This document shows, piece by piece, positions 13,394-49,083 of a stretch of DNA of 64,000 bases; within the stretch, counting starts at the first letter, position 1, and the number at the start of each line of letters is the position of its first letter. Below the pieces are notes generated by a model, which saw only the letters and a list, made by a program, of their open reading frames with translations, was not told the DNA's origin and ran no database searches. The translations under genes and the position numbers were made by a program. The DNA is from Myxococcota bacterium (GTDB lineage: Bacteria > Myxococcota_A > UBA9160 > UBA6930): positions 4,832,001 to 4,896,000 of the forward strand of contig OZ245002.1 of assembly GCA_965223415.1 (NCBI GenBank), in the 5' to 3' direction.

Positions 13394-13495
13394 GGTGTTG
13401 GGCTCATCGGCGCCACGACCCGGAGAGCTTACCCGGTCCGCATCGGCCGGGCGGACGCGGCCCCGGGCGCCGGCCGGCGAGGCTCCTACACTCGA

Positions 13496-13675
13496 CGCCC
13501 GAGCCCGTCACCGATGCCCGCCGCCCGGGGGGCGCCCGAGCCCGTCACCGATGCCCGCCGCCTGGGGGGGCGCCCGAGCCCGTCACCGATGCCCGCCGCC
13601 TGGGGGGGCGCCCGAGCCCGTCACCGATGCCCGCCGTCCGGGAGGCGTACGAGCCCGTCACCGATGCCCGCCGCC
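13496..13675. repeat. Tandem repeat, 5 copies of a 37-38 bp unit
   Basis: Core CGAGCCCGTCACCGATGCCCGCCG identical in 5 copies; units start at 13496, 13533, 13571, 13609, 13646; linkers of the first three units end in G6-G7 tracts. Confidence 0.95.
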
Positions 13676-13686
13676 GAACGTCCTTC

Positions 13687-15540
13687 GTGAGCCCGCCGCC
13701 CCGAGAGCGCAGCCCCGCGTGGGCGTTGGCCCTGGCCGCCCTGTGGCCGGCCGCCTGGATCGGCGTCGGCGACGTGTGGGGACACGGCCGCGCACTCCCA
13801 GCCGGCGATGCGGCCCTCGCCGTCGCGCTCTGGTCGGGCTTCGCGCTGCCCGCGGCGCTCGTGGCCGGGCTCGTGGGTCGGGCGCTCGGCAGCGGCGTTC
13901 GCGGACAGGCCTTCGCGGCACGGCTGGTCGGCGTGGGCTGGGCCGCCGCGGCAGTGCTCGCCCTCGCCCGGGGCTGGCTCACACCCGCCGGTGCGGTCCC
14001 CCTCGCGCTCCTCGGCGTGCTGGTGGGCGGTGCGGCGCGCATGGCGCGCCTCGCGCCGCTCCTGGCCGGGGGCCTGCTGGCGGCGCCGGTCCTCGCCGCC
14101 TTCGCCGGCGGCGCCGCCACGCGCGCTCCCGCGCCGGACGTCGGCGCACCGCAGCCCGAGCCGCGCCACGTCGTGCTGATCGTGCTGGATACCCAGCGCG
14201 CCGATCACCTGGGCGCCTACGGCCATCCCGGTGGGATCTCACCGGCCTTCGACGCCGCGGCCGCCGACGCGCGGCTCTACCGGAGCTGCTTCGCGCCGGC
14301 GTCCTGGACCGTGCCGTCCCATGCCTCGCTCTTCACCGGGCTCTACCCGCGGAGCCACGGAACCCACTTCGATCAGCACCGCTGGCTCGACGACCGCTTC
14401 GAGACCCTGGCCGAGGGCCTCACCGCCGCCGGCTACCGCACCCTCGGCCTCGCGGCGAACCACCACGTGGCGCTCGCGAACCTCGCCCAGGGCTTCGCCC
14501 GCTACGAAAGCCTGGGCATGCCGCGGGGCCTGCGGCTGCGCCAGCCGCTGCAGCTTCTGGGCGGGCCCGCTCGCTGGATCGACGAAGGCGCCAGCGAGGC
14601 GGCGGAACGGGTCGAGGCCATTCTCGGAAAGGACCCTCAAGTCTCCGTCCCGACGTTCCTTTTCGTGAACCTGCTGGAGCCCCACTGGCGCTACCTGCCG
14701 CCCGCTGCCGAGCGCCGCCGCGGCCTGCCTGCCGGCCTCGACGCCTGGACGGCGACGCGCCTCGTCTCGGGCTTCTTCGGGCCGTTGGCCTTCGCCCGGG
14801 GCGGGGCCGTCCCGCAGGAGACCGCAGCCGTGCGCGCCTTCTACGCGGCGGAGGTCCGCTACCAGGATGCGCAGCTGGCGAGGCTTCTCGAGGTGATCGA
14901 CCGGCGGCTCGGGCGCGAGCGCACCCTCCTCGTCATCACCTCGGACCACGGCGAGAACCTGGGCGAGGCCGGGCGCTGGGATCACGTGTTCGCCGTGAAC
15001 GATCACCTGATCCACGTTCCCATGCTGGTCCGGGCGCCGGGGGCCGTGGCGCCCGGAGTCGAGAGTGGCCTGTGCCAGCTCCTCGACGTTCCGGCGACGG
15101 TCGCCGCCTGGACCGGCACGGGCCTCGAGACCGGGGCAGGCCACAGCCTCCTCGACGAGGCCTACCCGGGCCGCGAGGCGGTCTTCGCCGAAGGAGACCC
15201 CTTCTACGGCCACCTCGAGCGCATGTCCGTCCACACCGGCCTGGAGCGGGACGTGGCCGGATTCACCGCCCGCCTGGTCGCCGCACGGGACGAGCGCTTC
15301 AAGCTCGTCGTCTCGTCCCGCACCGGAGAGGCCCTCTACGATCTCACCGTGGATCCGGACGAGGAGACCGATGTGGCCACCGCGTTCCCGGAGCAGGTCG
15401 CCCGACTCCGGGAGGCCCTGGCGGCCTGGCGGAAGGACCAGCCGATCTACCGCAGGGAGGCAGCCGGCGAGGCAGCCGGCGCCGGCATGAGCGATGCGGA
15501 GCGGGAGCTCCTGGAAACCCTGGGCTACGTGGAGCCCTGA
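13687..15540 (+). CDS. Membrane-anchored sulfatase-like hydrolase/transferase (alkaline phosphatase superfamily)
   Basis: N-terminal TMs, then VVLIVLDTQRADHLG, WTVPSHASLFTG, ITSDHGE, HVPML, LYDLTVDPDE, LETLGY; start either GTG 13687 or ATG 13627. Confidence 0.88.
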   Translation: MSPPPRERSPAWALALAALWPAAWIGVGDVWGHGRALPAGDAALAVALWSGFALPAALVAGLVGRALGSGVRGQAFAARLVGVGWAAAAVLALARGWLTPAGAVPLALLGVLVGGAARMARLAPLLAGGLLAAPVLAAFAGGAATRAPAPDVGAPQPEPRHVVLIVLDTQRADHLGAYGHPGGISPAFDAAAADARLYRSCFAPASWTVPSHASLFTGLYPRSHGTHFDQHRWLDDRFETLAEGLTAAGYRTLGLAANHHVALANLAQGFARYESLGMPRGLRLRQPLQLLGGPARWIDEGASEAAERVEAILGKDPQVSVPTFLFVNLLEPHWRYLPPAAERRRGLPAGLDAWTATRLVSGFFGPLAFARGGAVPQETAAVRAFYAAEVRYQDAQLARLLEVIDRRLGRERTLLVITSDHGENLGEAGRWDHVFAVNDHLIHVPMLVRAPGAVAPGVESGLCQLLDVPATVAAWTGTGLETGAGHSLLDEAYPGREAVFAEGDPFYGHLERMSVHTGLERDVAGFTARLVAARDERFKLVVSSRTGEALYDLTVDPDEETDVATAFPEQVARLREALAAWRKDQPIYRREAAGEAAGAGMSDAERELLETLGYVEP

Positions 15541-18866: not shown

Positions 18867-20444
18867 GTGAGCTCGCGAACCCAGGACGCGCTGGCCTGTG
18901 GCCTGCTCACCGGCCTCTGGTGGCTGCCGGCCCTGGCCATCGGAATCGCCGGCGAGTTTCCGATCAGCGACGACTGGTCCTACGCCCACACCGTGCAGGT
19001 GCTGCTCGAGACGGGCCGCTTCGAGCGCCCCGCCTGGACGTGGGCGCCCAGCCTGACGAACGTGGCCCTGGGCACCGTGTTCGCCTGGCCCGGCGGCTTC
19101 TCCTACGCGGCGCTGCGGGCGAGCACGCTGTTCGCCGGCTGGCTCGGCGTGCTCGCGACCTACGGCCTCGCCCGGCGCACCGGAGCCGCTGCCGCCGGTG
19201 CGGCCCTCGCCGGCGCATGCCTCGCCGTGAACCCGATCTGCGTGAACCTCGCCTACACCTTCATGACGGACGTGGCCTTCGCCGCGCTCACCACCGGCAG
19301 CCTGCTGGCGATGGCGATCGCGCTGGGCGGCGGCCCGGCCCGGGCGTGGATCGGAGCGGGCGCCCTGGCCCTGGCGGCGGTGCTCTCCCGCCAGCCGGCG
19401 GTCATGCTGCCGGCCGCGGCGGCCGGCGCGCTGCTGCTCCGCCACCGCCACCGGCCCGCCGTCTGGATCGTCACCGGCGCCCTCGCCCTGCTGGGCCTGG
19501 GCGTCTACACGGCGCTCCCGTACCTGTACGGCAGCGGCGACGGCGGCCGGCACATGCGCATCGGCTGGTTCGTGCGCAACACCGTGCTCGCGCCCCACGC
19601 GCCCTACCACGTGGCCCGGGGCCTGCTCACCGCCGCGTCGGTGCTGGGCCTGTCGCTGCTCCCCGTGGCGGTGGCCCTCCGTCTGGATCGACGGGCCTGG
19701 CTCGGCGGCGGCCTCCTGGCGATGGCCCTCGCGGCGGTGGCGTGGATGCTCGGCCTCTCCGCCCCCTTCCACCTGGACGTCCTGCGGGCCGATCTCGGCC
19801 TGGGCGCCATGACCCTGCCGAGCCCGCCGGACGCCCCGGGATGGGCGGGGCCACTCTGGTGGGGGCTCGATGCTCTCGGCTGTGCGGTCATGGGAGCGCT
19901 CGCCTTTCAGGCGGCACTCGCCGGGGGCCGCTTCGCCGGGCGGCCGGACCTCTGGGCCCTGGCCGCGTTCCCGGCCCTGTGCTTGGCCGTGCTCCTCTTC
20001 CAGCATCCCTTCTTCGATCGCTGGGTGCTGGCCTTCGTCCCGCCGCTGGCCGCGATCGCGCTCCACGCCGCGCCCGCCGAGCTGCGGTGCGGGCCGGCGC
20101 TGGCCGGGGTCGCGCTCCTCGCCCTGTGGAGCTGGCTCGGCACCGCCGACGCGATGGACCACCACCGCGCCCGTTGGGAGCTGCTCGCCGAGCTCCAGGC
20201 CACCGGTGTCACGCCGGATCGCGTCGACGGCGGCTTCGAGTTCAACGGCCTCTACAACTTCGCCAAGGACGACCGGGACTGGTCCCGCTTCAAGCCGAAG
20301 CCCGGCTCCCGCTGGGTCGTCGACGACGAGTTCGTCGTGAGCCACGCCCCCACCCTCCCCGGCTACCAGCCCATCGCCGAGCGCAGCTACCCCCGGCGCC
20401 TTCCGCCCGGCAGCCGGACGATCCGCGTCCACCAGCGCCGCTGA
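18867..20444 (+). CDS. GT-C fold membrane glycosyltransferase (family 39-like)
   Basis: FPISDDWSY acidic loop, TFMTDV, SRQ, FDRW, VDGGFEFNG; many TM helices. Confidence 0.75.
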   Translation: MSSRTQDALACGLLTGLWWLPALAIGIAGEFPISDDWSYAHTVQVLLETGRFERPAWTWAPSLTNVALGTVFAWPGGFSYAALRASTLFAGWLGVLATYGLARRTGAAAAGAALAGACLAVNPICVNLAYTFMTDVAFAALTTGSLLAMAIALGGGPARAWIGAGALALAAVLSRQPAVMLPAAAAGALLLRHRHRPAVWIVTGALALLGLGVYTALPYLYGSGDGGRHMRIGWFVRNTVLAPHAPYHVARGLLTAASVLGLSLLPVAVALRLDRRAWLGGGLLAMALAAVAWMLGLSAPFHLDVLRADLGLGAMTLPSPPDAPGWAGPLWWGLDALGCAVMGALAFQAALAGGRFAGRPDLWALAAFPALCLAVLLFQHPFFDRWVLAFVPPLAAIALHAAPAELRCGPALAGVALLALWSWLGTADAMDHHRARWELLAELQATGVTPDRVDGGFEFNGLYNFAKDDRDWSRFKPKPGSRWVVDDEFVVSHAPTLPGYQPIAERSYPRRLPPGSRTIRVHQRR

Positions 20445-20469
20445 CCCAGCCGTGAGGACACGGCTGCCT

Positions 20470-21501
20470 CTACGGGCGACGGGCGAGCCGGAAGCCCGCG
20501 GCGGCTCCGATCGCCGTGAAGCCCAGGGCGGCCAGGGCAAGGAGCGTCCGGCGGGTCGGGCCGCCGAGTGCCCGTTCGAGCTTCTGGCCGATGCTGAGCT
20601 CTTCCGGAGCGAAGACCTTGCGGAAGCGGTCCGGGGCCTGCTTGCCCGTGGCGAGGGCGGCGGCGGTGCGGATGCGCAGGTCGACCCTGTCGCCGGCGAT
20701 GTCGACCACGACGAAGTTCTCGTGCTGGTAGTTCATGATCCGCGTCGACTCGAAGTTGCGGATCGTGCGGATGTGGGAGAAGCCCTCGACGGCGGACTGG
20801 ACGTAGTCGATGCCGTCGCGCTCGGTGTGGGAGAACTTGAGCGGGCCGAAATCGCCCGCGAAGACGGCGCGCACCGGATGGCCGGCGAGAACGGGGTGCA
20901 CCTCCCGCCACCAGGACGCGTCGGCCTCCCACCACAGCACGTGGTGGACGAAGGCGAACACGTGCCGGGCGTCGTCGTGCTCGGCCAGGGTGTCCCGGAT
21001 CCACTGCAGCTGGGCCGGGGGCAGGCCCTCCGTGCGCACCCAGTTGCGGGGAGAGGGCGTCGGGATCACGTCGTCGTAGTGGGTCGAGTCGAGCAGGAGG
21101 AAGAGGACGTCCCCCCGGCGGAGCGCCGCAGGCCGGGTGCCGTAGCGCTCCTGGAAGACGGCGGCGGTGGTCGGGTCGTTGATGTCGTGGTTGCCGGGCA
21201 CCATGTGAAGCGGCGCGCCGATCGGCGCGAGGGCCGTCTCCAGCGCCTGCCAGTCCCTCACGATGACCTCTCGATCGACCCGCTCGGCGTGGTAGTCCGC
21301 CCAGATCTGGTCGCCCGTGAGGAAGACCAGGTCCGGAGCCTCGGCGGCGACGTCGGCCGCGATCTCCCGGATCCACGGGTTCATCTCCCCGTTCTCGTTG
21401 CCGCGCAGGTGGCCCACGACCGCGAAGCGCAGCGAATCCTCCTGGGCCGGAAGCGACTGGGGCCACAGCAGGGCGAGGAGGAGCGGGATCAGCGCCTTCA
21501 C
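20470..21501 (-). CDS. Secreted, C-terminally anchored calcineurin-like metallophosphoesterase (atypical motifs)
   Basis: Signal peptide MKALIPLLLALLWPQSLPA; FLTGDQI, VPGNHD, FVHH; C-terminal TM plus basic tail. Confidence 0.85.
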   Translation of the reverse strand: MKALIPLLLALLWPQSLPAQEDSLRFAVVGHLRGNENGEMNPWIREIAADVAAEAPDLVFLTGDQIWADYHAERVDREVIVRDWQALETALAPIGAPLHMVPGNHDINDPTTAAVFQERYGTRPAALRRGDVLFLLLDSTHYDDVIPTPSPRNWVRTEGLPPAQLQWIRDTLAEHDDARHVFAFVHHVLWWEADASWWREVHPVLAGHPVRAVFAGDFGPLKFSHTERDGIDYVQSAVEGFSHIRTIRNFESTRIMNYQHENFVVVDIAGDRVDLRIRTAAALATGKQAPDRFRKVFAPEELSIGQKLERALGGPTRRTLLALAALGFTAIGAAAGFRLARRP

Positions 21502-24476
21502 TCGTTCCCCTCGCGAAGGTAGAGCCCGTGGATGCGAAGCTCCGCCGGGCCCGTGCGCTGCTCCTCTCCCTCGGCGCGGAGCACGAGCTCGGAGAGGCCC
21601 TCGTCGGGAAGGCGCACGGCCGCGAGCCGCCGCTCGCCGCGCTCCGCCGTGGGCGGCAGCTCGAGCTCACCGGCGCCCGCCGGCCCGCGCCAGCGGAGCC
21701 CCGCCTGAGCGATGCCACGCGTCGCATACTCGACCACCAGGGTCGCGCCGCCCCGCGCCTCGGACCAGGCCCGGCGCACCTCCGCCGGCCCGCGCCGGGG
21801 CTGGAGGACGAGGTCGCCGTCGCGCTTGGCCAGCCGCGCCCGGTCGCCGCGCAGGGCCCAGCCGTCCCAGGCCTCGTGGAAGTCGTCGTCGAAGCGCAGC
21901 TCGGCCCCGGGTGCGCCGGCGATCCAGGGCGGCGGGGCCGGCAGCTCCTCCCGCGTGCGGGTGGAGGCCTCGTCCGCCTCGTAGTCCAGCTCGTTCCCCG
22001 CCAGGGCCGGACCGATCCATTTCGCTTGCCCGCCGCCGCCGTAGCGCCAGTTCTTCACCTTCTGGTTCAAGCCGACGCGGTTGCCCTGCACCTGGTTGCC
22101 GACCAGCCAGGGCCGCGAGCGGTCCTTCACCTCGAGCCCGGTGACGCACCCGCGGATCGCGTTGTCCTCGATCCAGGGCTCGCTGGCTTCGCCGATCGAG
22201 ATGCCCTTGTCCCCCGAGCCCGTGATGTGGTTGCCGACGATCCGCGGGTCGGAGGTCATCAGGTCGATGGCGTCGTTGCCGGCGGCCTCGAAGCGGTTCC
22301 GGGCGATCACGCCCGTGCTGTAGTCGTAGTCCACTGCATCGGCGTTGGTGCGCCGGAAATGGCTGCCTTCGATGTCGACCTCGGCGTGGACGGCGTTGAA
22401 CGCGTCGTCGGAGCGGAGGTTGTCCTCGAAGGCGCACGCCGAGAAGCGCACGTCCCGGGCCCAGTGGACGTCGACCATGCCCTTGAACTCCACCGCGTCC
22501 AGTTCGGCACCGCCGCCCCTCGCGAAGGTCACGTGGGCGAAGCGGCTGCCGCTGGCCGCGGGTCCCAGCAGGGCCACGGCCCCCCAGGGCCGCGCGGGAT
22601 CCAGGGCCTCGATGCGGATCGGTGCCTCGGCGGTGCCCTCGGCGAGGACGCGCCCCCGCGAGAAGATCGAGACGTCCGGAGCCAGGCGCAGGACCGTGCC
22701 CGGGGCGATGGTGAGGCTGCCGCCCGCTTCGATCCGGATCGTCTCGTGGATCTCCTGCTCTCCGGCCAGACGAAGGGCGCGGGGCTCGGGCTCCGGGAAC
22801 GCCCAGGCGTGGAAGCCGACCGTCGCAGCGGGAGTCGCCGGCGGAAGGAGCGAGGCGGAGATCGGCGAACCCGTGAGGGCGTTCTGGAACACGGGACGCC
22901 CGGGGCCCTCGACGAAGAAGCGGTAGTCGGCCGGCGCCGCCTCGATGCGCCAGGCGGTGGTGTCGGCGGCCGGAAGCAGCCGCAGCGGGAGCGAGACGAG
23001 GGGGTCCGCGTCGTCGAGACGCCCGTTGCGATTGCGGTCGGCGCGAAGCTTCGTCCTGGCGTCGGCCCCTTCCAGCGCCGCGAAGGACACCGCGGCGCGC
23101 CCGCTGACGCGCACGTCCAGCAGGCCGTCGTCTCCGGCCCCCACGGCCACCCGCGCGTCGTCCACCCAGGCCGCGAGCGTCGCGGCATTGGCCTCGAGGC
23201 GCGCCCGCACCTCCGCCGGCGGGGCGAGGTCCGGCACCGTCCCGGAGCGCAGGGCCTCGTAGGCCAGGGGGCCCGCGAAGCGCTCCTCCGCGCGCTCCAG
23301 CCGGGCCGCCACGCCGTCCAGCAGGGTGCCGTCCGAGCGCCTCCGCGCGATCTCGTCCATCACCGCATCGAGGAGCCGCGGGTCCCGCAGGAGCGAGGTG
23401 AAGCCCGTGTTCAGCGGATGCTGGGGCTCCGCATCGAGGGACAGCAGGCGGATGTCCCACACGATCGGGTGCACCCGGCCGCTCGATGGATCCTCGTACC
23501 AGAACTGGTTGTGGAGGTTCGTCATGTGGTACGGGTCGCCGGCCACGAGCAGGAACGCGAGGAGCCGCGCGATCTCCTCCCGGTCGAGGATCTGCCAGGC
23601 CCGGTCCAGCTCCGCCGGGGTGCCCGCCGCCACGGCCGTGAGGAGCCGCTCCAGCCCGGAGGCCGCGGGACGGGTCGGCCGCTCGTTCTTCGCGACCCGG
23701 TCCCAGACCGCCGGGTTGCGCCACAGGTTGCGCTGTACGCCGCGGAAGCTCTCGCCCCGCTCGGCGGTGTCGCCCCGGAACACGTCGCCGGGCATGCGCC
23801 GGAGGCGGCGGAGCAGCGATTCGTCGATCACCTCGGTGGCCCGGAAGAGCCCGTAGAAGCGGTCGTTCACGAAGACCGGCGCCAGGAAGGTCTCCGGCGC
23901 GAGCAGCCCGTAGTGCCCCGCCAGGCCGTTCACCGCCACCTGCTCCACCGGCGTCTTCACCGAGTAGACCAGCCGGCGACGGCCCTTGTAGAGGCGCTTG
24001 CGCGGCGTCTTCAGCGTGAAGGACTTCTTCGGCGTCAGCCAGTGCACGCCGGTGTCCCCGCGCTTGCGCAGCTTGACCGGATGCAGCTCGCGCCCGCGCA
24101 CCACCGACGCCTCGACCCACTCGCCGGACAGGGCGAGCGGTGCGTCCTGCCAGGTGTTCCACACGTCCCGGTCCACGTGCAGTCTCAGCCAACGCGGGTC
24201 GGGGGATTCCGCGTCGAGCCGCAGGCGGAGCGCGAGCGCCTCCGGAAGGTGCGCGAGGGTGGCGATGCGGGCGTCGGCCAACCGGCCCAGGCTCTCGGTG
24301 CGCGTCCACCAGTCCTGGAAGCTCCGGGCGTCGAGGTACCGGGCGACGGGCGTGCCGACCAGGAACGTGAGCACGAGCCAGAGCGGCAGGGAGAGCACGA
24401 AGGCGTCCCATAGCCGGAAGCTCCTCCAGCGCAGCCGGCGCGCGCCGAAGAAACGGGCGCGGTCCCGCGCGATCAC
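21498..24476 (-). CDS. CotH-family kinase fused to right-handed beta-helix domain
   Basis: N-terminal TM; KLRKRGD..HW...KKSFTLK, VFVNDRFYGLF...E, HNQFWYEDP...HPIVWD; beta-helix repeats DDAFN, DAVDYDYS, DAIDLMTS, DKGISIGE, GLEVKD; GTG start overlaps upstream stop. Confidence 0.85.
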   Translation of the reverse strand: MIARDRARFFGARRLRWRSFRLWDAFVLSLPLWLVLTFLVGTPVARYLDARSFQDWWTRTESLGRLADARIATLAHLPEALALRLRLDAESPDPRWLRLHVDRDVWNTWQDAPLALSGEWVEASVVRGRELHPVKLRKRGDTGVHWLTPKKSFTLKTPRKRLYKGRRRLVYSVKTPVEQVAVNGLAGHYGLLAPETFLAPVFVNDRFYGLFRATEVIDESLLRRLRRMPGDVFRGDTAERGESFRGVQRNLWRNPAVWDRVAKNERPTRPAASGLERLLTAVAAGTPAELDRAWQILDREEIARLLAFLLVAGDPYHMTNLHNQFWYEDPSSGRVHPIVWDIRLLSLDAEPQHPLNTGFTSLLRDPRLLDAVMDEIARRRSDGTLLDGVAARLERAEERFAGPLAYEALRSGTVPDLAPPAEVRARLEANAATLAAWVDDARVAVGAGDDGLLDVRVSGRAAVSFAALEGADARTKLRADRNRNGRLDDADPLVSLPLRLLPAADTTAWRIEAAPADYRFFVEGPGRPVFQNALTGSPISASLLPPATPAATVGFHAWAFPEPEPRALRLAGEQEIHETIRIEAGGSLTIAPGTVLRLAPDVSIFSRGRVLAEGTAEAPIRIEALDPARPWGAVALLGPAASGSRFAHVTFARGGGAELDAVEFKGMVDVHWARDVRFSACAFEDNLRSDDAFNAVHAEVDIEGSHFRRTNADAVDYDYSTGVIARNRFEAAGNDAIDLMTSDPRIVGNHITGSGDKGISIGEASEPWIEDNAIRGCVTGLEVKDRSRPWLVGNQVQGNRVGLNQKVKNWRYGGGGQAKWIGPALAGNELDYEADEASTRTREELPAPPPWIAGAPGAELRFDDDFHEAWDGWALRGDRARLAKRDGDLVLQPRRGPAEVRRAWSEARGGATLVVEYATRGIAQAGLRWRGPAGAGELELPPTAERGERRLAAVRLPDEGLSELVLRAEGEEQRTGPAELRIHGLYLREGNE

Positions 24477-25372
24477 GTCGGGTCTCCCGCAAAGGCGTCG
24501 GCGGGCGGCTCCTGCACCCGGGTGCGAGCCTCCAAGCGGGCCAGTCGGTCCCAGTCCGTGAGGTTGCGGCAGGCGCGGCGCACCGTGTCCCACAGCGTGG
24601 CATCCACCGGCTTGAACACGCGCAGGGTCGCCCGCTCTCGCCCGTCCGGGTCGACCCGCCGCTCCAGGGTCTCCAGGGGCGCGGCGGCGGCGAGCTCCCC
24701 CGAGCCCGGATCGAGCAGGAAGGTGTGGGGCGCGCCGTCCGCCTGCACCCATACGTCTTGGGGCTCGCCTCCGCGGACGAGCTGCACCATGCCCCACGCG
24801 TCGAGGTAGCGCTCGTAGGCCGCGACGGCGCCGGCCGCATCACCCCGGTCCGCGTGGTCCTGCACCACGCGGCGAACCGTGGGCAGGTGATTCGGATGGA
24901 TCGCGAGCACCCGCGCCCAGGCCTCGCGGGCCTCCTCCAGCTCGCCGAGCTCCGCCGCCACCTCGCCGTGCAGGGCGTGGAAGGCGAAGTTGCGCGGCTC
25001 GAAGGCGGTGAGCCGGCGGAGGGTCGCGAGGGTGCGCCCCTTCCGCCCCTTCGCCCGGTGAACCCGAGCCATGGCCTCGAGCACCCGAGCGCGCTGGCTG
25101 GCGAGGCCGTGCTTGATGTGGCGGGCCGGGAGCCGGCGATCGAGCCGGAGGAGCATGGCTTCCGCCGCCTCCAGGTCGCCCTCCCCGAGCCGCGTCACCG
25201 CCGCATCCACCCGCAGGGCCCAGGCCGCCTCGGCCCGGTAGCTGACTTTCTTGGCCTGGACCGACACCCAGCCACGCACCCCCGGGACCAGCCAGAGCGC
25301 CAGGGCGCCGGCCACGGCGGCCAGGTACGCCACGGCCAGGGTGCGTTCGTGGCGCCGGAGCCCGCGAAGCAT
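24473..25372 (-). CDS. Membrane-anchored tetratricopeptide repeat protein
   Basis: N-terminal TM LAVAYLAAVAGALALWLV; TPR-like helices LTAFEPRN..HGEVAAELGELEEAREAWARVLAIHPNH; ATG overlaps DUF4956 stop. Confidence 0.78.
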   Translation of the reverse strand: MLRGLRRHERTLAVAYLAAVAGALALWLVPGVRGWVSVQAKKVSYRAEAAWALRVDAAVTRLGEGDLEAAEAMLLRLDRRLPARHIKHGLASQRARVLEAMARVHRAKGRKGRTLATLRRLTAFEPRNFAFHALHGEVAAELGELEEAREAWARVLAIHPNHLPTVRRVVQDHADRGDAAGAVAAYERYLDAWGMVQLVRGGEPQDVWVQADGAPHTFLLDPGSGELAAAAPLETLERRVDPDGRERATLRVFKPVDATLWDTVRRACRNLTDWDRLARLEARTRVQEPPADAFAGDPT

Positions 25373-26067
25373 CAGACGTTGACGCTCTCCTGTCCGACGA
25401 GCAGCACGACCTTCTGGTTGCCGTTGATCGCGCGGATGCCGTTCAGGAGCTCCGTCTGGTCCGCGTCGTCCTTGAGGCGGATCGAGTAGACCAGCTCGAG
25501 GAGTGCGCCACCGCGGATGGTCTCGACGCTCACCAGCGAGTGATCGCGCAGGTGGGCGTAGAAGACCTCGTCGAAGATGCGATGGTGGTCGAGGTTCTCG
25601 GGCAGGTGGACCTTGAGCAGCACCTCCGAGCCGCTGGCGGAGCCGACGTCGAAGCGGTGGAGCACGTAGATCATCGCGCATACGGCCACCGTGAAGATCA
25701 GCGCGGCCTGGAAGAAGCCGGTGCCGGTCGCCATGCCGATGGCCATGGTGATGAAGATGAAGGCAACGTCCCGCGACTCCTTCACCGCGTTGCGGAAGCG
25801 GATGATCGAGAGCGCGCCCACGAGGGCGAAGGCCCGGGCGATGTTCGAGCCGATGATGAGCATGATGATCGACACGGTCACGCTCATCAGGATCATGGTG
25901 TGCACGAACGCCGTGGAGTAGGAGAGCCCGCGGTGGGTCTCCCGGTAGAAGTAGGCGACGACCAGGCTCAGGAAGAAGGCCAGGCCCAGGGCCAGCAGGA
26001 TCTCCCAGGCCGTGAAGCCCGCGTCCACACCGGGTCCGCGTAGCGCCTCGTTGATCCACTCGTCCAT
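25372..26067 (-). CDS. DUF4956 family membrane protein
   Basis: 4-5 TM helices with IGSNIARAFALVGALSIIRFRNAVKESRD..FIF...AIGMATG signature, plus C-terminal soluble domain. Confidence 0.88.
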   Translation of the reverse strand: MDEWINEALRGPGVDAGFTAWEILLALGLAFFLSLVVAYFYRETHRGLSYSTAFVHTMILMSVTVSIIMLIIGSNIARAFALVGALSIIRFRNAVKESRDVAFIFITMAIGMATGTGFFQAALIFTVAVCAMIYVLHRFDVGSASGSEVLLKVHLPENLDHHRIFDEVFYAHLRDHSLVSVETIRGGALLELVYSIRLKDDADQTELLNGIRAINGNQKVVLLVGQESVNV

Positions 26068-26145
26068 CGGTCGGCATTCCCTCCCCGTGCCGGCGCGGCG
26101 GCGGCCGGCGGGCGTCGGCCCGGGTGAAGACCCGGAGGCGGCGGC

Positions 26146-26871
26146 TCAGGTGAGCTCGCCGCCAAAGTACTCCTTATCGACCGCCGTGCAGTACTTCGAC
26201 ATGCGAATCATCTGCAGATCGAAGTCGGCGATGAGGCGACAGAGCCACAGCGGCACCGTGTGGTTGTACTTCACCTCGAGGATCGCCTGGTCCGGCGCGA
26301 TCAGGGCCTTGGCCGGCTCGGCCTTGTGCCGCAGGGTGAGATCCTTCGGGTGGAATTGCACCCGGGTGTCGAACGTGATGCGCAGGTCCGACTCGTTGGC
26401 GGCGAAGTAGGCCTGGCGCTGGTAGGAGGTTCCCATGGCGGGTCGAAGATCGTAGTGGCGCCACAGGAAGAGGATCTCCTGGAGCACGCGGTCGTCGGCG
26501 TCGGACAGCTCGCCCTCGGGCAGGGAGCCTTCGAAGAAGACCTCGAGCACCCGCTCCAGGGGCCAGCGGATCCGCCGCTTCTGGAGCGTGCGGTCGATCC
26601 GCTGCTTGATCTCGATCCAGACCTGGTCGCTCTCGCCATAGCGCCGGAAGCGCACCTTCCGACGGAACTTCAGGCCCTCGATCTTCTCCCAGAAGCAGGC
26701 CCACTCGGGCGAATCGGCGTAGATCGAGTAGATCGGGTAGCCGCCGCCCTGCCCGTTGTTCGGATCCGGGACGACGTAGCTGCCGAGGGCGTCGACGAAG
26801 CGACCGATCGTCGCGTGGGGCACGACGTACTTCAGCTCGAGCCGGTTGAAGTCCTTGATCTCTCTGGCCAC
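26146..26871 (-). CDS. VTC domain (polyphosphate polymerase domain) protein
   Basis: RLELKY, IYSIYADS, EKIEG..RRKVRFRRY, WIEIK, YQRQAY, LRITFD, ILEVKY, MSKYC; GAGGGA RBS before GTG 26871. Confidence 0.92.
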   Translation of the reverse strand: MAREIKDFNRLELKYVVPHATIGRFVDALGSYVVPDPNNGQGGGYPIYSIYADSPEWACFWEKIEGLKFRRKVRFRRYGESDQVWIEIKQRIDRTLQKRRIRWPLERVLEVFFEGSLPEGELSDADDRVLQEILFLWRHYDLRPAMGTSYQRQAYFAANESDLRITFDTRVQFHPKDLTLRHKAEPAKALIAPDQAILEVKYNHTVPLWLCRLIADFDLQMIRMSKYCTAVDKEYFGGELT

Positions 26872-26948
26872 GGTCCCTCGCTCGCCCTGGGCATCGGCAG
26901 GCCCGACGGGCGAATGAAGGTAGCGACAGGGCCGGTACCCTCCGGCCT

Positions 26949-28571
26949 GTGAGCTCCGGGGACGCGAAGCGGGCGCGAGCACGGGATGCGGTCCTCGCCG
27001 CGGGCCTCGCGCTTGCGGCCTTCGCGGCGTTCGCGACCGGGTGGCACGAGGGCCTCTACGGAGGCGTCGCCGAGGTGGGCGCGAAGCGGGTCCTGGCAGG
27101 GGACCTACCGTACCGGGACTTCTGGACGATCTACGCGCCGGGGCAGTTCTACCTCCTGGCCGGGCTCTTCCGCCTGCTCGGGCCCTTCTGGTGGGTGAGC
27201 GTCGCGGCGGCCAGCGTCCTCGCCGCCGCCGGTGTCGCCGCGGTGTACGCCGCCGGCCGCTGCGCGGGAGCCGGGCGCGGGCCCGCGCTCGCGGCGGGCC
27301 TCGTCGTGGCGGCGGCGGTGGCCGCCACGCCCTTCGCCCGTTCCTGCGGCAGCTACCCGCCAGCCCTGCCGCTCGTGGTCGGGGCCTGGGCGCTGGCGAT
27401 CCGCGGCGGGCGGCGGGCGCTCCTGGGCGCAGGGGCCTGCCTGGGGCTGGCGGCGCTCTTCAAGCACGACGTCGCCGGCTACGCGGCGGTCGGCATCGCG
27501 GTCTTCGGCACGCTCCGACGACAGGCCGAGGGCGCGCCGCTCCGGGACGGCCTGCGCGCGCCCCTGCCCGTCGCCGGCGGCGCCCTGGCGATGTTCGCGC
27601 CGCCGATGGCCCTGCTCGCCGTCCACGCGGGCCCGGACCTGGTGCAGGATCTCGTCCGCTTCCCCCTCGGCGATTTCTCCGCCTCCCGGCCCGAGCGCTT
27701 CCCGCTCTGGCCCGCGAGCCTGGCCAAGCCGGACGTGCCGATCGTCCTCCGGGCGGTGGATGTCGGCAACAGCCTGGGATTCTGGCTGCCATGGCTGGCA
27801 TGGCTCCCGGTCGCCTGGGCCGCCGCCCGCCGGCCGGCCCGGTGCCCGCTGGCCCTGGGTCTCTTCGCGAGCTTCCTGCTGCACATGCTGGCCGCTCGCG
27901 TGCAGATCAACACCCACGCGATCTCCTGGACCGTCTATCCCGCCCTGGCCCTCGCCGCCCTGTGGCGCCGGGAAGCGCCCCTCCCCTGGCGGGGCGCCGG
28001 GCTCGCGCTGGCGGTGGCTCTGCTGGCGAGCCACGCGGTCGGGCCGGCCGTGCGCGGGCTGACGGATCCGCGCCCGCGGATCGCCCATCCGCTGCCCGCC
28101 GCCGGGGGCCTGCGTGTGCCGGAGCCCCACACCGCCCACCTCGCCCAGCTCGCCGGCTGGGTCGAGCGCACCGTGCCGCCGGACGCGCGGATCTTCGCCG
28201 GTGCCGCGCGCCACGACTCCCTGCTCAACAGCCCGATCCGGCTCTACTTCCTACTCGAGCGCCAGCCAGCCGTCCGCTACCAGGAGCTCCACCCGGCGGT
28301 CGCGGACACCGCTCTGGTGCAGCGCGAGATGATCGCCGACCTGCAAGCGAGCCAGGCGCCCCTGGTCGTCCTGCGCAGCACCGTCTCCGACGCCCACCTC
28401 GACGCCTGGCTCGCCCAGCTGCGCCAGCACGTTCCGGAGGCGGGCGCGACCCTGCTGGATGCCTATCTCGCCTGTGCCTACGAGGAGAAGGAGCGGCTGG
28501 GGCCGTTCCGCGTGCGGGTGCGCCGCGCCGGCGACCGCAGCGGATGCGTCCCGGCGTCACCGGCTCGTTAG
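26949..28571 (+). CDS. GT-C-like integral membrane protein
   Basis: HEG...RVLAGDLPYRDFWTIYAPG, LFKHDV; multi-TM N-terminus with soluble C-terminal domain. Confidence 0.7.
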   Translation: MSSGDAKRARARDAVLAAGLALAAFAAFATGWHEGLYGGVAEVGAKRVLAGDLPYRDFWTIYAPGQFYLLAGLFRLLGPFWWVSVAAASVLAAAGVAAVYAAGRCAGAGRGPALAAGLVVAAAVAATPFARSCGSYPPALPLVVGAWALAIRGGRRALLGAGACLGLAALFKHDVAGYAAVGIAVFGTLRRQAEGAPLRDGLRAPLPVAGGALAMFAPPMALLAVHAGPDLVQDLVRFPLGDFSASRPERFPLWPASLAKPDVPIVLRAVDVGNSLGFWLPWLAWLPVAWAAARRPARCPLALGLFASFLLHMLAARVQINTHAISWTVYPALALAALWRREAPLPWRGAGLALAVALLASHAVGPAVRGLTDPRPRIAHPLPAAGGLRVPEPHTAHLAQLAGWVERTVPPDARIFAGAARHDSLLNSPIRLYFLLERQPAVRYQELHPAVADTALVQREMIADLQASQAPLVVLRSTVSDAHLDAWLAQLRQHVPEAGATLLDAYLACAYEEKERLGPFRVRVRRAGDRSGCVPASPAR

Positions 28572-28587
28572 GCGCGGAACGCGCCGC

Positions 28588-29484
28588 TCAGCGGACGCCG
28601 CCGCCGCGGAGGAAGCCGCCCAGGCGCGCTTTCTGCCAGCGGCGCAGCTCGCGGCGGAAGCGCTCGTCCTCGTAGCGGGGATCGCCGCGCAGGGCGGCCC
28701 AGAGGTAGCCCAGCACGATCAGCAGGCCGCCGATCACGTAGGGACGCTCGCGCATGCGAAAGGCGCCGGAGGCGAGCACGTAGAGCGGCGACGAGCCCAT
28801 GAACCACTGGCCCCGGCCCCAGCGGAGACGCCCCCGGTAGATGCTGCGGTCGGACGCGCCCATCGCGCGCAGCTCGGTGATGCGCAGGTTCGGATCGTCG
28901 ATGCTGCGGGTGCGCCAGCCCTCGAGCCGCGCCCGGTGGAAGTCGATGCCGTCCCACATCACCTCCCGCACGAAGCCGCCGATCGCCTCGAAGGCGCGCC
29001 GCCGGTACACCTTGAACTGGCCCGCCACCATCTCGTCGACCATGAAGTTCTCGACGAGGGTGCCGTCGGCGGCCAGGTAGACCTTGCCGCTCGCGGCCGC
29101 GAGCTCCGGGTCGGTCTCGAAGTACTGCATGAGGGTCTCGAGGTAGGTCGGCGGAAACTCGAGATCGACGTCGACCTTGGCGAGGAAGTCGTAGTCGACG
29201 TCGGCCGATCGAAGGCCCTCGTCGAAGGCCTCGATCACCCCGCCGCCCAGGCGCCGGAAGCCCCGGTCCTCACGGCGGATCACGCGGATCCAGTCGTGGC
29301 GCTTGGCCGCCTCCGCGGCGATCTGGGCCGTGCGATCGGTGGACCCGTCGTCGACGATGATCCAGCGCCGCGGGCGCCGGGTCTGGGCGACCATCGCGTC
29401 GATGGTGCGCTCGAGGGTCACCTCTTCGTCCCGGGCCGGAGACACCGCGACGAGCGCAAGGACATCGGCCTCCGATCGCTCCAC
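28588..29484 (-). CDS. Glycosyltransferase family 2
   Basis: VSPARDEE, IVDDGSTDRT, KVDVD, GQFKVYRR, WDGID; AGGAGA RBS before GTG 29484. Confidence 0.9.
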   Translation of the reverse strand: MERSEADVLALVAVSPARDEEVTLERTIDAMVAQTRRPRRWIIVDDGSTDRTAQIAAEAAKRHDWIRVIRREDRGFRRLGGGVIEAFDEGLRSADVDYDFLAKVDVDLEFPPTYLETLMQYFETDPELAAASGKVYLAADGTLVENFMVDEMVAGQFKVYRRRAFEAIGGFVREVMWDGIDFHRARLEGWRTRSIDDPNLRITELRAMGASDRSIYRGRLRWGRGQWFMGSSPLYVLASGAFRMRERPYVIGGLLIVLGYLWAALRGDPRYEDERFRRELRRWQKARLGGFLRGGGVR

Positions 29485-31937: not shown

Positions 31938-32741
31938 TCAGCTCAGGGAGGGCGGCCCGTGGCGTCCCCGCAGGGCCTTCGTCAGGCCCGAGAGGGCGAA
32001 GGGCACGTTGCGCAGGTAGCGCCCCGCCAGCCGCCCGGGCTCCTGCAGCAGGCGATGGGCCCACTCGAGGCCGATCCGCTGGACCCAGCGCGGCGCCCGC
32101 TGGACCTCACCGGCCACGAAGCTCAGGCTGATGCCGCAGCCCATCCACCAGGTGCGGGGGAAGCGCGCCCGGAGGGCGTCGATCAGGTACTCGGTCTTCG
32201 GGGAGCCGAAGGCCACGAACACCAGGTCCGGCTGGGCCGGCGCGAGGGCCTCGGCGATGGCCGCGAGCTCTTCGCCGGTCGGCGGCGTGCTCACCCGGGG
32301 CGCGAAGTGGCCGGCCACGACCAGGCCCGGGTAGTGCGAGGTGAGCTTTCGGGCGGCCTCGGAGGCGACGCCGTCGTCTCCGCCGAGCAGGAAGAGCCGG
32401 TGGCCGGCGTGGGCCGCCTGCTCCGCCAGCAGCCAGACCAGGTCGGAGCCCGCCACCCGCTCCGGGAAGGGATGGCCAGCCAGGCGAGCCATCCACAGCA
32501 GCGGAGAACCGTCCGGCACCCGGAGATCGGCCCGGCCGTAGAGTGCCCGCACCTCGGCGTCGCGGCTGGCCTGCTGGACGAGCTCCACGTTCGGCGTCAA
32601 CACCCAGCCCCCCCGTCCCGCGGCCACGCCCTCCCGGACCCGACGACACACTTCGTTGCGATCGATCCGGTGGAGCGGAAGCCCGTGGAAGTCGAAGGTC
32701 CCGTACTCGGCGGCCGCCCCTCCGGCCGGCGGCGCGGTCAC
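31938..32741 (-). CDS. WecB/TagA/CpsF family glycosyltransferase
   Basis: VLTPNVE, VPDGSP, ERVAGSDL, FVAFGSPKTE, RAPRWVQRIGLEWAHRLLQEPGRLAGRYL. Confidence 0.92.
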   Translation of the reverse strand: MTAPPAGGAAAEYGTFDFHGLPLHRIDRNEVCRRVREGVAAGRGGWVLTPNVELVQQASRDAEVRALYGRADLRVPDGSPLLWMARLAGHPFPERVAGSDLVWLLAEQAAHAGHRLFLLGGDDGVASEAARKLTSHYPGLVVAGHFAPRVSTPPTGEELAAIAEALAPAQPDLVFVAFGSPKTEYLIDALRARFPRTWWMGCGISLSFVAGEVQRAPRWVQRIGLEWAHRLLQEPGRLAGRYLRNVPFALSGLTKALRGRHGPPSLS

Positions 32742-33478
32742 GGCCTGGGCTCCCCGCCCGGAACCCAGCGGCACACCAGCCGCTCGGCGCCGGTCGCCGC
32801 CACCGCCAGGTGATGGCGGGGGGTGGGCCGCCCGTGCCAACAGCGCCAGCCCGGCCCCGCCCCGCCGGGCGCGACCGGCGAAGGCGTTCCGGCTTCGCGG
32901 GCCTCGGCGTCGCCGGGCGGAAAGTGGACACGGCCCAGGAGCCCCGCCAGCCCGCCGCCCTCGGCCTTGGCCAAGGCCTCCTTCAGGCACCACAGGCGGA
33001 GGAAGCGCTCCCGCGCGAGCGCATCGTCCGAAGGCTCGCCCACCCGGCGCGCCTCGTCCGGATGGAAGAAGCGCCCGGCCAACGCCCGCGGGTCGCGCAG
33101 CCGGCGGCCACCCTCCACGTCCACGCCCACGGCCCCTCGGCCGACGGCGCAGGCAACGAGCCCGTCCGTGTGGGAGACGTTGAACGCCGGGGCGTCGGCC
33201 TGGGCGAGCTCGGGGCGCCCCCGCGCATCGCGGCGAAGGGTCCAGGCCTCCGGCCCGCGCCCGCCGTAGCAAGCGAGGACGTGGCGGAGGAGTCCCCGCC
33301 CGCAGGCGAACCGTCGCCCGGGCTCCTCCGCCATGCGCCCCAGCTCCCCGCGTTCCGCGTCGGACAGCACGCGCCGCAGACAGGCCGGCGTGTCCTCCGG
33401 CTCGGCCATCAGCCACACGTGGATCTCGTCGGGGGGCAGCCCGGTGTCGGGGGTGCTCGGCGGAGCGGGATCGGACAC
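32738..33478 (-). CDS. 4'-phosphopantetheinyl transferase (Sfp type)
   Basis: GRPEL, FNVSHT, VGVDVE, FLRLWCLKEALAKAEG. Confidence 0.92.
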   Translation of the reverse strand: MSDPAPPSTPDTGLPPDEIHVWLMAEPEDTPACLRRVLSDAERGELGRMAEEPGRRFACGRGLLRHVLACYGGRGPEAWTLRRDARGRPELAQADAPAFNVSHTDGLVACAVGRGAVGVDVEGGRRLRDPRALAGRFFHPDEARRVGEPSDDALARERFLRLWCLKEALAKAEGGGLAGLLGRVHFPPGDAEAREAGTPSPVAPGGAGPGWRCWHGRPTPRHHLAVAATGAERLVCRWVPGGEPRP

Positions 33479-33619
33479 AGCGGCGAACGGTGGGGTGCCG
33501 GAGGATGTGTGTCAACGCACGGGGCCCATTCCGCCTCGGAGCGAGGCTCGGTCGGTACCGTACCGGGAGCGAGCCGCCCACGTGGCAACCGGGCGTGGGT
33601 CCGCGATCCTCAGGCCGCC

Positions 33620-35434: not shown

Positions 35435-36084
35435 CCGGACCCGGGCGGAGATCCCTCGGGCTCTCTGGTGCGGCCCTGCTGCTGCTCGCGGCGGCGGCCG
35501 GGGCCCAGCCGATCCCGGGCGGGGTCTCGTCCATGGCGGTGATGTGGGCCCAGGGCGAGTACCGCTCGCCCATGATCTGCGAGATCGACGGCCAGCCCGC
35601 CCGCGCCCTTCGCCGGGTGGTGGTCCGTCCCGGCCCGCGCCGGGGCGCGCGCCTCAGCGGACGCCTGACCTTCTTCGACCTGGAGGCTCCGTCGAACACG
35701 GTCTGCTACGGCGAGACCGGCGGCGACCAGCCGAACCTGATCGGTGCCCTGTACTTCGTGCTCGAGGGGCGGGCCAACAGTGACACGGCCCGCCACGACT
35801 TCGACGAGACCCTTCGCCGCAAGGGAGGCTTCGCCTTCGACGTGACCGGCGGAAGCCTGCGCGGCGGCCCGCCCGGCGCCGCGACCGGCGGGCTTCCGGC
35901 CTTCGAGCTCGCCGAGGCCGAGCTCCGGGTCGACACCGTCGCGCGGGGCAGCGACGCCTTCCGTCGCCTGGCCGACTTCGGCGCCCGCGACAAGCGGGTC
36001 CTCACCCTCCAGCTCGCGGACGGACGCAGCTGGTCCTTCGACCTGGTGCGCTGGGATCCCCCGGACCGCCGCCGTCCGCGCTGA
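35431..36084 (+). CDS. Secreted hypothetical protein
   Basis: GTG overlaps upstream stop; signal peptide ...LLLLAAAAGAQ; two Cys. Confidence 0.65.
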   Translation: MTGPGRRSLGLSGAALLLLAAAAGAQPIPGGVSSMAVMWAQGEYRSPMICEIDGQPARALRRVVVRPGPRRGARLSGRLTFFDLEAPSNTVCYGETGGDQPNLIGALYFVLEGRANSDTARHDFDETLRRKGGFAFDVTGGSLRGGPPGAATGGLPAFELAEAELRVDTVARGSDAFRRLADFGARDKRVLTLQLADGRSWSFDLVRWDPPDRRRPR

Positions 36085-36088
36085 GCCG

Positions 36089-49031: not shown

Positions 49032-49083
49032 GGGGGGCCTGCCGGGATTGCGGCGCCCCGGCGCCGCGTGCGACCATGGCGCG

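Follow-up and report, generated by a model that had tools for sequence, protein, structure and literature searches.

A conserved VTC, DUF4956, TPR, CotH/beta-helix and phosphoesterase cassette in Myxococcota, and a candidate link between polyphosphate synthesis and the cell envelope

A stretch of 64,000 nucleotides from the genome of a Myxococcota bacterium (GenBank assembly GCA_965223415.1, contig OZ245002.1, positions 4,832,001 to 4,896,000; this whole stretch is called the window here) carries a cassette of five co-oriented genes at positions 20470-26871, about 6.4 kb in size, all on the minus strand and in the order VTC, DUF4956, TPR, CotH/beta-helix, phosphoesterase. These five genes are a conserved unit that keeps a fixed order across phyla. 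We interpret them as an envelope module that may link the synthesis of polyphosphate (polyP) in the cytoplasm to reactions at the periplasmic side of the inner membrane, a reading to which we give a probability of roughly 0.45. In the textbook account, bacterial polyP is the business of PPK1 and PPK2 chemistry, and the periplasm and cell surface contain no pool of ATP. VTC, DUF4956 and CotH are a known, uncharacterised trio of families, and what is new is its fixed five-gene diderm form, outside a Pel locus.

Results

Layout of the cassette

Gene coordinates were taken from a list of the open reading frames (ORFs) of the window with their program-made translations, and the junctions were read off the sequence itself. 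The features of the cassette are as follows:

26146..26871, minus strand: VTC-domain protein, 241 aa (Pfam PF09359, E = 6.8e-41)
25372..26067, minus strand: DUF4956 membrane protein, 231 aa (PF16316, E = 8.4e-19)
24473..25372, minus strand: TPR protein, 299 aa (weak matches to Pfam TPR families; family profile)
21498..24476, minus strand: CotH-like kinase / right-handed beta-helix protein, 992 aa (PF08757 plus Beta_helix/NosD)
20470..21501, minus strand: atypical metallophosphoesterase, 343 aa (Metallophos, PF00149)
20447..20466, minus strand: GC-rich hairpin, possible operon end (sequence and fold)

A first-pass annotation, made from the sequence alone, had named these five genes and described the last four as joined by stop/start overlaps. 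Both statements agree with what we see: VTC, DUF4956, CotH and Metallophos all score above their Pfam cut-offs in an HMM check and the TPR protein is recovered through a profile of its family, while the DUF4956 stop codon (25374-25372) runs into the TPR start codon (25372-25370) in the string TGATG, and GTGA overlaps form the junctions between TPR and CotH (24476-24473) and between CotH and the phosphoesterase (21501-21498). The gene coordinates proposed there also stand, apart from the start of the TPR gene, which is at 25372 and not at 25375. VTC begins with a GTG at 26871, preceded by GAGGGA, and is separated by 78 nt from DUF4956, whose ATG follows a GGAGG-like stretch. At the far end, the phosphoesterase stop codon (TAG, 20472-20470) is followed by a 25-nt gap to a convergent GT-C gene, mostly occupied by the hairpin at 20447-20466 (-21.1 kcal/mol, z = -2.68, with 6 of 200 shuffles equally good and no T-run), a possible terminator that may mark the end of the operon. 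A scan for promoters and terminators returned one promoter-like site, which is intragenic, and three weak terminator-like sites, about the level expected by chance. Nothing matched in Rfam over positions 19500-29000, nothing matched in PADLOC, and no NCBIfam model rose above its cut-off for the five cassette genes.

Conservation of the five-gene unit across phyla

The CotH/beta-helix protein has 67 full-length relatives in the protein collection besides its own entry, at 36-72% identity. A genome scan with an alignment of these relatives, taking the best 80 of 590 confirmed stretches, yielded 56 loci, which belong to Gemmatimonadota, Planctomycetota, Myxococcota and one metagenome-assembled genome (MAG) labelled Alphaproteobacteria. 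Neighbouring genes were sought with local profile hidden Markov models, those for the TPR protein and the phosphoesterase being built from the cassette genome and a second Myxococcota genome, G083, alone; locus L025 is the same record as G083, so one row of the comparison is circular. VTC, DUF4956 and TPR genes lie on the same strand and within 5 kb in 37 of the 39 loci that have at least 4 kb of upstream sequence (in one of the two exceptions VTC is about 9.4 kb upstream, on the same strand), and the phosphoesterase gene lies downstream in 39 of the 43 loci with at least 2.5 kb on that side. Where both flanks are available, the complete cassette recurs in identical order in 27 of 30 loci (18 from Gemmatimonadota, 6 from Planctomycetota, 2 from Myxococcota and the 1 labelled Alphaproteobacteria), an arrangement far beyond chance. 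The tight spacing recurs as well: with start codons called heuristically, 24 of 37 cassettes show an overlap of the DUF4956 stop with the TPR start, and 36 of the 37 have no more than 50 nt between the two genes. In Planctomycetota cassettes an SGNH/GDSL gene is inserted between TPR and CotH.

The first-pass annotation had allowed that the genes might fail to co-occur in other genomes. The 27 complete cassettes, along with the presence of DUF4956 in 97 of 98 Myxococcota genomes that have VTC (see below), are strong co-occurrence and speak against that possibility.

A VTC domain with the residues of the Vtc4 polymerase

The VTC protein scores 140.8 bits against a Pfam cut-off of 23, its domain spanning residues 9-232 of 241 aa. 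The Pfam scan found no other family in these 241 aa, hence no SPX domain, and no transmembrane (TM) segment appears in its hydropathy profile. Single-sequence searches of the PDB were uninformative; a profile of the VTC family matches Vtc4 (3G3Q) over its full length (profile 4-248, Vtc4 190-470; E = 4e-23). Counted by hand along the HMMER alignment, residues K14, R74, R76, K89, Y150, R152, E199, S225 and K226 correspond to Vtc4 K200, R264, R266, K281, Y359, R361, E426, S457 and K458. These are the nine Vtc4 residues that the VTC cryo-EM preprint describes as contacting the triphosphate or Mn and as required for polyP in vivo, K458 being the one that the inactive Vtc2 and Vtc3 lack. An alignment of 18 sequences was later enlarged to 53, in which all nine are invariant or at least 90% conserved; the invariant columns are R10, E12, K14, Y51, D53, R70, K72, R74, R76, Y78, E87, K89, K98, Y150, R152, R164, D168, E199, K201 and K226. 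The basic tunnel motifs that the first-pass annotation had recognised are therefore kept, with all nine Vtc4 residues falling on conserved columns. From its residues and hydropathy, the protein is predicted to be a cytoplasmic Vtc4-type triphosphate-tunnel polyP-polymerase domain with a complete catalytic residue set.

PPK1, two PPK2 genes and PPX are present elsewhere in the same genome, about 380 kb off the cassette, so bulk polyP metabolism can do without the cassette VTC. Longer, fused relatives of the VTC protein were not found, in a word-limited search that makes this weak evidence. In a quick tree, cassette VTCs group largely by phylum, and since the Myxococcota rows are not separated from other VTC types we claim no donor or direction of transfer. 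The MAG labelled Alphaproteobacteria (L053) has the complete five-gene cassette, and its VTC lies inside the Gemmatimonadota clade of this tree, which would reflect either gene transfer or a binning error.

A membrane-anchored CotH domain fused to a beta-helix

From N- to C-terminus, the 992-aa protein (minus strand) is made up of the following parts:

residues 26-44: TM anchor, predicted N-in, after a +7 N-terminus (7 basic residues)
about residues 136-440 (nt 23157-24071): CotH domain
about residues 695-803 (nt 22068-22394): beta-helix
after the beta-helix: additional C-terminal domain

Its Pfam CotH match is marginal (25.3 bits against a cut-off of 23.8, model positions 2-211 of 322), and the beta-helix is recognised by Beta_helix (E = 5.3e-10) and by NosD. 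Topologies in this work come from hydropathy and positive-inside charge counts, a rule and not a trained predictor. The N-terminal TM segment is present in 70 of 71 CotH relatives, and in 54 of them K+R before it exceed K+R after it. By this rule the CotH domain should face the periplasm, the orientation that the first-pass annotation had given it.

The domain also looks catalytically competent. A profile of the subfamily matches Bacillus cereus CotH (5JD9, E = 1.2e-11). For comparison we assembled 20 canonical CotH domains from the same phylum, in which D195, W220 and D221 are invariant and N203 nearly so. An hhalign comparison of the subfamily with this canonical set (99% probability, E = 5.4e-18, 287 columns) pairs D314 with D195, N323 with N203 and D341 with D221, and in 71 subfamily sequences D314 and D341 are at least 90% conserved, and N323 and H317 are invariant. 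In B. subtilis CotH, D228 and D251 are described as essential, the former as the catalytic Asp and the latter as metal-binding (PMC7821199). We considered and rejected the idea that the catalytic Asp has been replaced in the subfamily: the HMMER alignment to 5JD9 puts M318 at this position and MAFFT puts Y316 there, but the profile-profile alignment puts D314. The subfamily has one extra residue between the Asp and the Asn, and to this we attribute the mis-registration onto M318 by HMMER.

The beta-helix region has its own set of near-invariant residues (N686, R688, D690, D691, D713, D716, D718, D735, D738, D756, K757, E763, E782, K784 and D785), and sequence searches found no solved relative of the beta-helix and the region after it. 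The charged residues of both are compatible with glycan binding or cleavage. This raises the alternative that the CotH/beta-helix protein is mainly a glycan-cleaving or glycan-binding enzyme, a counterpart of the DUF4832 protein of Gram-positive bacteria, that its kinase-like domain is binding or regulatory, and that the phosphoesterase removes phosphodiester-linked substituents. The many acidic residues just listed would suit such an enzyme, as would the active glycoside hydrolase described for the Gram-positive set (PMC12345266) and the existence of a DUF4956-Cthe_2159 fusion (P0075, see below). We nonetheless regard it as very unlikely: the CotH Asp/Asn/Asp residues, kept in at least 90% of the 71 members, argue for an active phosphotransferase and not a relic, and the link to VTC would be left unexplained.

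Phosphoesterase and TPR protein

The phosphoesterase matches Metallophos at 35.6 bits (cut-off 21.5). Its N-terminus has a signal-like h-region, and near its C-terminus a TM segment (residues 319-337) is followed by the basic tail RLARRP; among its orthologs the h-region is kept in 37 of 39 and the C-terminal anchor in 38 of 39, with a mean of 4 K/R after it. By the same rule, a signal peptide would be followed by a periplasmic catalytic domain and a C-terminal TM anchor. The best solved relatives of the family profile are mammalian purple acid phosphatases (1QHW, E = 1.1e-6; also 1WAR), with which the cassette enzyme has in common the GD (D64) and GNHD (N104/H105) motifs and the motif-IV His (H187). 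It departs from them in having an invariant H31 in place of the motif-I Asp, Trp67 at the position of the tyrosinate, and G216-D217-x-G219 in place of GHDH. H31, D64, N104, H105 and D217 are invariant in the family and H187 is near-invariant. In the alignment to purple acid phosphatases, the canonical dinuclear metallophosphoesterase ligand set, which we take to be D, H / D / N / H / H / H, is thus incomplete. R33, K222 and S224 are strictly conserved, suggesting that the site is functional and binds anions. With 122 representatives at E ≤ 1e-30 among 1.84 billion, about 50 of them full-length, this is a small family, and among 201 Myxococcota genomes a close ortholog occurs in 2, the cassette genome and G083 (48% identity). 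A precedent for a phosphatase in such company is yeast Ppn2, described as an endopolyphosphatase of the metallophosphatase superfamily that works within the vacuole, beyond the VTC complex (PMC7381174).

The TPR protein has weak matches to Pfam TPR families, and a profile of 38 family members matches consensus TPR structures with E down to 2.9e-31; in the ESM Atlas it fell into generic TPR clusters only. It has one TM segment (residues 12-30) after a +4 N-terminus (4 basic residues), and this segment is kept in all 41 of 41 orthologs, 34 of them N-in, so that the rule predicts an N-terminal signal-anchor and a periplasmic TPR domain. The TPR, CotH/beta-helix and phosphoesterase proteins would all be held by anchors in the inner membrane, with domains that face the periplasm. 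Hydropathy, charge and orthologs together bear out the topologies of the first-pass annotation, in which VTC has no TM segment, DUF4956 has several, the TPR and CotH proteins have one each at the N-terminus and the phosphoesterase has a signal peptide and a C-terminal anchor. G083 has a TPR ortholog at 33% identity (E = 4e-38). An apparent fusion of TPR to CotH in that genome was rejected: the 1396-aa ORF is over-extended, its first ~345 residues being out of frame, and the TPR ortholog is encoded in another frame.

DUF4956 and its pairing with VTC

The DUF4956 protein scores 68.4 bits against a cut-off of 30.6, and MgtC (PF02308) reaches a sub-threshold 27.9 bits against 31.4. It has four clear TM segments and a fifth, less hydrophobic one that ends in an IIRFRN motif, followed by a soluble C-terminal part. 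Across 37 orthologs the N-terminus is acidic and the loops at 42-53 and 90-100 are basic, which points to an N-out/C-in topology that would place the invariant R90, F91, R92 and K96 on the cytoplasmic face. Its profile found nothing meaningful among solved structures. One metagenome protein of 877 aa, P0075, joins DUF4956 (residues 32-189) to a Cthe_2159 carbohydrate-binding beta-helix domain (344-622) and is the sole fused form found in the word-limited searches.

We surveyed 201 sampled Myxococcota genomes, which are related and not independent, leaving out 4 rows that are second halves of split VTC matches and 8 rows in which DUF4956 was below its cut-off. VTC is present in 98 genomes, DUF4956 over its cut-off in 98, and both in 97. 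Of 115 VTC loci, 111 have DUF4956 no more than 5 kb away on the same contig, and in 75 the distance is 1 kb or less. Among 14 control genomes, VTC and DUF4956 both match in the same three. The pairing of VTC with DUF4956 is thus near-obligate. None of the 7 other genomes of the cassette genome's own family has VTC; the cassette genome itself has one copy each of VTC, DUF4956 and CotH, all inside this operon. CotH is the commoner family, present in 113 of the 201 genomes: 92 have VTC and CotH, 6 have VTC only, 21 have CotH only and 82 have neither. Because the genomes are related, we attach no importance to a Fisher P value for this table.

These features can also be read as those of a sensor or regulator, in which VTC and DUF4956 would follow or adjust phosphate or ATP status and tune the periplasmic enzymes, whose donor would come from elsewhere, for example from a lipid-linked compound or a sugar-phosphate. 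The sub-threshold MgtC match would fit this, together with a streptococcal relative described as having an ACT-type cytoplasmic domain (PMC12345266), and so would the 21 CotH-positive genomes without VTC and the lack of resemblance between DUF4956 and any solved channel. A sensor would have no need of the polymerase-specific residues, which are fully conserved down to the equivalent of K458; DUF4956 is tightly coupled in translation to the gene of the periplasmic TPR protein; and the HlyD and OEP genes of sister cassettes, described next, point to transport. We consider the sensor decidedly unlikely.

Other arrangements of the VTC-DUF4956 pair

We compared 20 Myxococcota VTC loci, made up of all 14 from the cassette genome's order and 6 high-scoring others, with a Pfam scan of 136 of the 271 called ORFs, those within about 5 kb of VTC. 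They include these classes:

Five-gene form: the cassette genome and G083
DUF4956, large CotH-like protein, VTC: L010, L013, L014 and L017
VTC-DUF4956 followed by an HlyD-family protein (often with a phytase-like part; two cases) and/or an OEP/TolC protein: L018-L022
CotH-VTC-DUF4956-DUF2490: L023
VTC-DUF4956 pair with a phosphate-selective porin, PHO4 and PhoU: L007

HlyD and/or OEP (TolC-type) genes thus follow the pair in 5 of the 20 loci (L018-L022), and among the ORFs scanned there we found no other inner-membrane pump, which makes this class the best comparative hint that DUF4956 may be an inner-membrane export component. It has the same VTC-DUF4956 core as the cassette described here; it adds an adaptor and an outer-membrane duct, whereas ours adds the TPR, CotH/beta-helix and phosphoesterase genes and has no duct. 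A literature search returned no paper on VTC-DUF4956-HlyD-TolC cassettes.

The same loci bring in another reading, in which polyP is itself the product, exported into the periplasm or onto the cell surface as a polyanionic matrix or cation-binding component, with the CotH/beta-helix protein priming the chain or joining it covalently to a glycan or protein and the phosphoesterase setting its length. Such a product would sit well with the 6 of 98 VTC genomes that have the pair without CotH, with the HlyD/OEP export parts beside it in 5 of 20 loci, with the phosphate porin, PHO4 and PhoU of L007, and with a phosphoesterase tethered to the membrane beside the presumed exit; in yeast, Ppn1 and Ppn2 are described as setting chain length beyond the VTC complex (PMC7381174). 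The five-gene form lacks an outer-membrane duct or adaptor, however, and its CotH residues match those of a phosphotransferase that, in the characterised member, moves single phosphoryl groups (PMC7821199). On balance we hold polyP as the end product to be unlikely.

Some further neighbours were seen in these loci. In L007 (5074-10899) the pair and a 303-aa protein stand beside the phosphate-selective porin, PHO4 transporter and PhoU-like genes, in a genome without a CotH match. A PPDK_N-type (phosphoenolpyruvate/pyruvate-binding) gene adjoins the VTC cassettes of L005 and L020, and a double adenylate-kinase gene adjoins VTC in L018.

The surrounding exopolysaccharide locus

The window has a G+C content of 71-76% and encodes members of the Pfam families Poly_export, Bac_transf, AAA_22 and AAA_31, several GT2/GT4 glycosyltransferases, a carbamoyltransferase, a PMT_2-type GT-C protein, a sulfatase-family protein, a Kdo/WaaP-like kinase and a Wzx-type flippase. 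Over their NCBIfam cut-offs are EPS_sugtrans and the PEP-CTERM-associated CAAX protease, and below them are PEP-CTERM export, ATPase and tyrosine-kinase models. The first-pass description of the window as an exopolysaccharide (EPS)/PEP-CTERM locus is, on these markers, a fair one.

In the flanks of 12 other cassette loci (72 of 98 called ORFs scanned), a glycosyltransferase, Wzx-type flippase or polysaccharide deacetylase gene is found in 10; in 5, the stretch of about 3.5 kb upstream of VTC includes a Wzx-type gene. The closest relative, L024, has PMT_2 and carbamoyltransferase neighbours in common with the locus described here, and Planctomycetota loci have sulfatase-family and amine-oxidase genes upstream. 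The association of the cassette with glycan genes is therefore frequent, not universal.

Several other genes of the window were noted, all on the plus strand unless stated:

26949-28571: polytopic membrane protein of 540 aa, encoded divergently from VTC; neither Pfam nor NCBIfam recognises it, and the ORF found upstream of the L024 VTC is not its homologue
13378-15540: sulfatase-family protein of 720 aa with an N-terminal extension of ~260 aa, within the EPS locus
35846-37372: Kdo/WaaP-family kinase-like protein of 508 aa, a second, cytoplasmic-type phosphotransferase candidate for the glycan
32345-35434: AAA_22/AAA_16 protein, overlapping a 4'-phosphopantetheinyl transferase at 32738-33511 on the minus strand; both ORF calls have Pfam matches
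49027-53912: squalene-hopene cyclase gene, then a 1028-aa adenylate/guanylate-cyclase and AAA_16 protein; neither is related to the cassette

Discussion

Relation to known systems

The trio of VTC, DUF4956 and CotH has appeared in print before, so the association itself is not new, and it does occur in other bacteria, as the first-pass annotation said. In an account of Gram-positive pel operons, cotH, a 'poly-phosphate polymerase', DUF4956 and DUF4832 are given as contiguous accessory genes (Whitfield et al., 2020; PMC7112168), and in a 2025 study of S. intermedius mutants in the DUF4956-type and CotH-type genes are reported to produce less Pel and to aggregate less (PMC12345266). The latter describes the DUF4956-type membrane protein as an MgtC-TM plus ACT protein; in its treatment of the trio the three genes were not found together outside Pel loci, and the mechanism is left open. 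A 2010 paper on C. perfringens lists VTC-domain and CotH genes in one locus, and two further papers name DUF4956 genes in expression tables alone. Our literature search found nothing relevant on the function of bacterial VTC domains or on a link between polyP and CotH, and no paper that describes the five-gene form.

Like the Gram-positive pel accessory set, the cassette has the same three families adjacent and co-oriented beside a surface-polysaccharide locus, with a CotH protein predicted to be exported and an MgtC-like DUF4956 protein. Unlike that set, it belongs to a diderm, a search for PelG in its single-contig genome (97% complete) came back empty, and Wzx and PEP-CTERM-type markers take the place of pelDEADAFG. 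The cassette also adds a TPR anchor protein and a tail-anchored phosphoesterase, and has a beta-helix fused to CotH, with no separate DUF4832 hydrolase among the Pfam matches of the ORFs scanned in the cassette and window. Here the trio stands outside a Pel locus, where the 2025 study reports not finding it (PMC12345266).

The eukaryotic VTC complex (Vtc4/Vtc3/Vtc1; 3G3Q, 7YTJ, 8I6V), taken with lumenal Ppn1/Ppn2, offers a second comparison. Both systems have a tunnel domain with all nine catalytic residues, a dedicated membrane partner and a metallophosphatase-superfamily enzyme across the membrane; the cassette VTC differs in having neither an SPX domain nor a fused TM channel domain, and its partner, DUF4956, is of an unrelated family. 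The kinase-like domain is homologous to that of Bacillus CotH (5JD9/5JDA; E = 1.2e-11) and retains the Asp/Asn/Asp residues. It differs in its marginal Pfam score and in the extra residue between Asp and Asn, and it belongs to a protein of ~1000 aa, predicted to be membrane-anchored and periplasmic, with beta-helix and C-terminal domains.

A possible route from cytoplasmic polyphosphate to the cell surface

If the cassette is an envelope module of the kind we favour, its parts could work together as follows. VTC would dock on the cytoplasmic side of a DUF4956 oligomer, where its basic residues lie, and polymerise phosphate from ATP, and from the VTC-DUF4956 assembly the polyP chain would pass into or through the membrane. 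The CotH domain could then use polyP as a phosphoryl donor or transfer the chain itself, with the fused beta-helix positioning it on a polysaccharide and the TPR protein serving as a scaffold. The target may be the EPS that the neighbouring genes produce. The purple-acid-phosphatase-like enzyme would trim or recycle polyP, for which Ppn2 is the precedent. The most specific form of this proposal, a self-contained system that would phosphorylate outside the cytoplasm without ATP and in which polyP threaded through a DUF4956 pore is the donor for a periplasmic CotH that marks a surface polysaccharide held by the beta-helix, with the phosphatase-like enzyme recycling the chain, is unlikely in our judgement.

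The envelope module draws its support from the complete catalytic residue sets of VTC and CotH, the near-obligate VTC-DUF4956 pair with its HlyD/OEP and phosphate-porin neighbours in other loci, the PPK genes that make VTC dispensable for bulk polyP, the partners predicted to face outwards, the constancy of the cassette, its glycan setting, the S. intermedius genetics and the Ppn2 precedent. Several observations weigh against an envelope module driven by polyP. DUF4956 appears, from its sub-threshold Pfam match, to be a distant relative of MgtC, which is described as a regulator and not a channel in the mBio paper on the Gram-positive set (PMC12345266); it shares no homology with the yeast complex's TM domain, and among solved structures its profile has no match. 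The characterised CotH is described as using ATP (PMC7821199). With two canonical His ligands and the motif-I Asp replaced, the phosphoesterase may not be a dinuclear hydrolase. CotH occurs without VTC in 21 of 113 CotH-positive genomes and VTC without CotH in 6 of 98 VTC genomes, and a CotH detectable with Pfam (E ≤ 1e-5) is present in only 9 of the 20 Myxococcota VTC loci over the ~5 kb scanned, so that the link between VTC and CotH is frequent, not obligatory. No fusion of VTC to DUF4956 or to CotH was found, in word-limited searches that make this weak evidence. Finally, the G083 cassette lies outside any obvious EPS locus, with an LPG_synthase_TM gene and a GDSL gene in its flanks.

Present in 98 of the 201 sampled Myxococcota, or about half, an intact Vtc4-type enzyme tied to a membrane protein would give these bacteria a second polyP route, one that crosses compartments. 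Exported kinase-fold enzymes have no ATP pool to draw on, and the cassette joins a candidate donor-maker, a candidate kinase and a candidate phosphatase in one operon. Were the specific form of the proposal true, VTC and DUF4956 would be a new bacterial polyP synthase and translocase, and CotH the first kinase outside the cytoplasm to run on polyP. The S. intermedius mutants already connect the Gram-positive version with Pel-dependent aggregation (PMC12345266), and if the target in the five-gene form is EPS, the cassette would modify glycans in a new way that bears on biofilm matrices.

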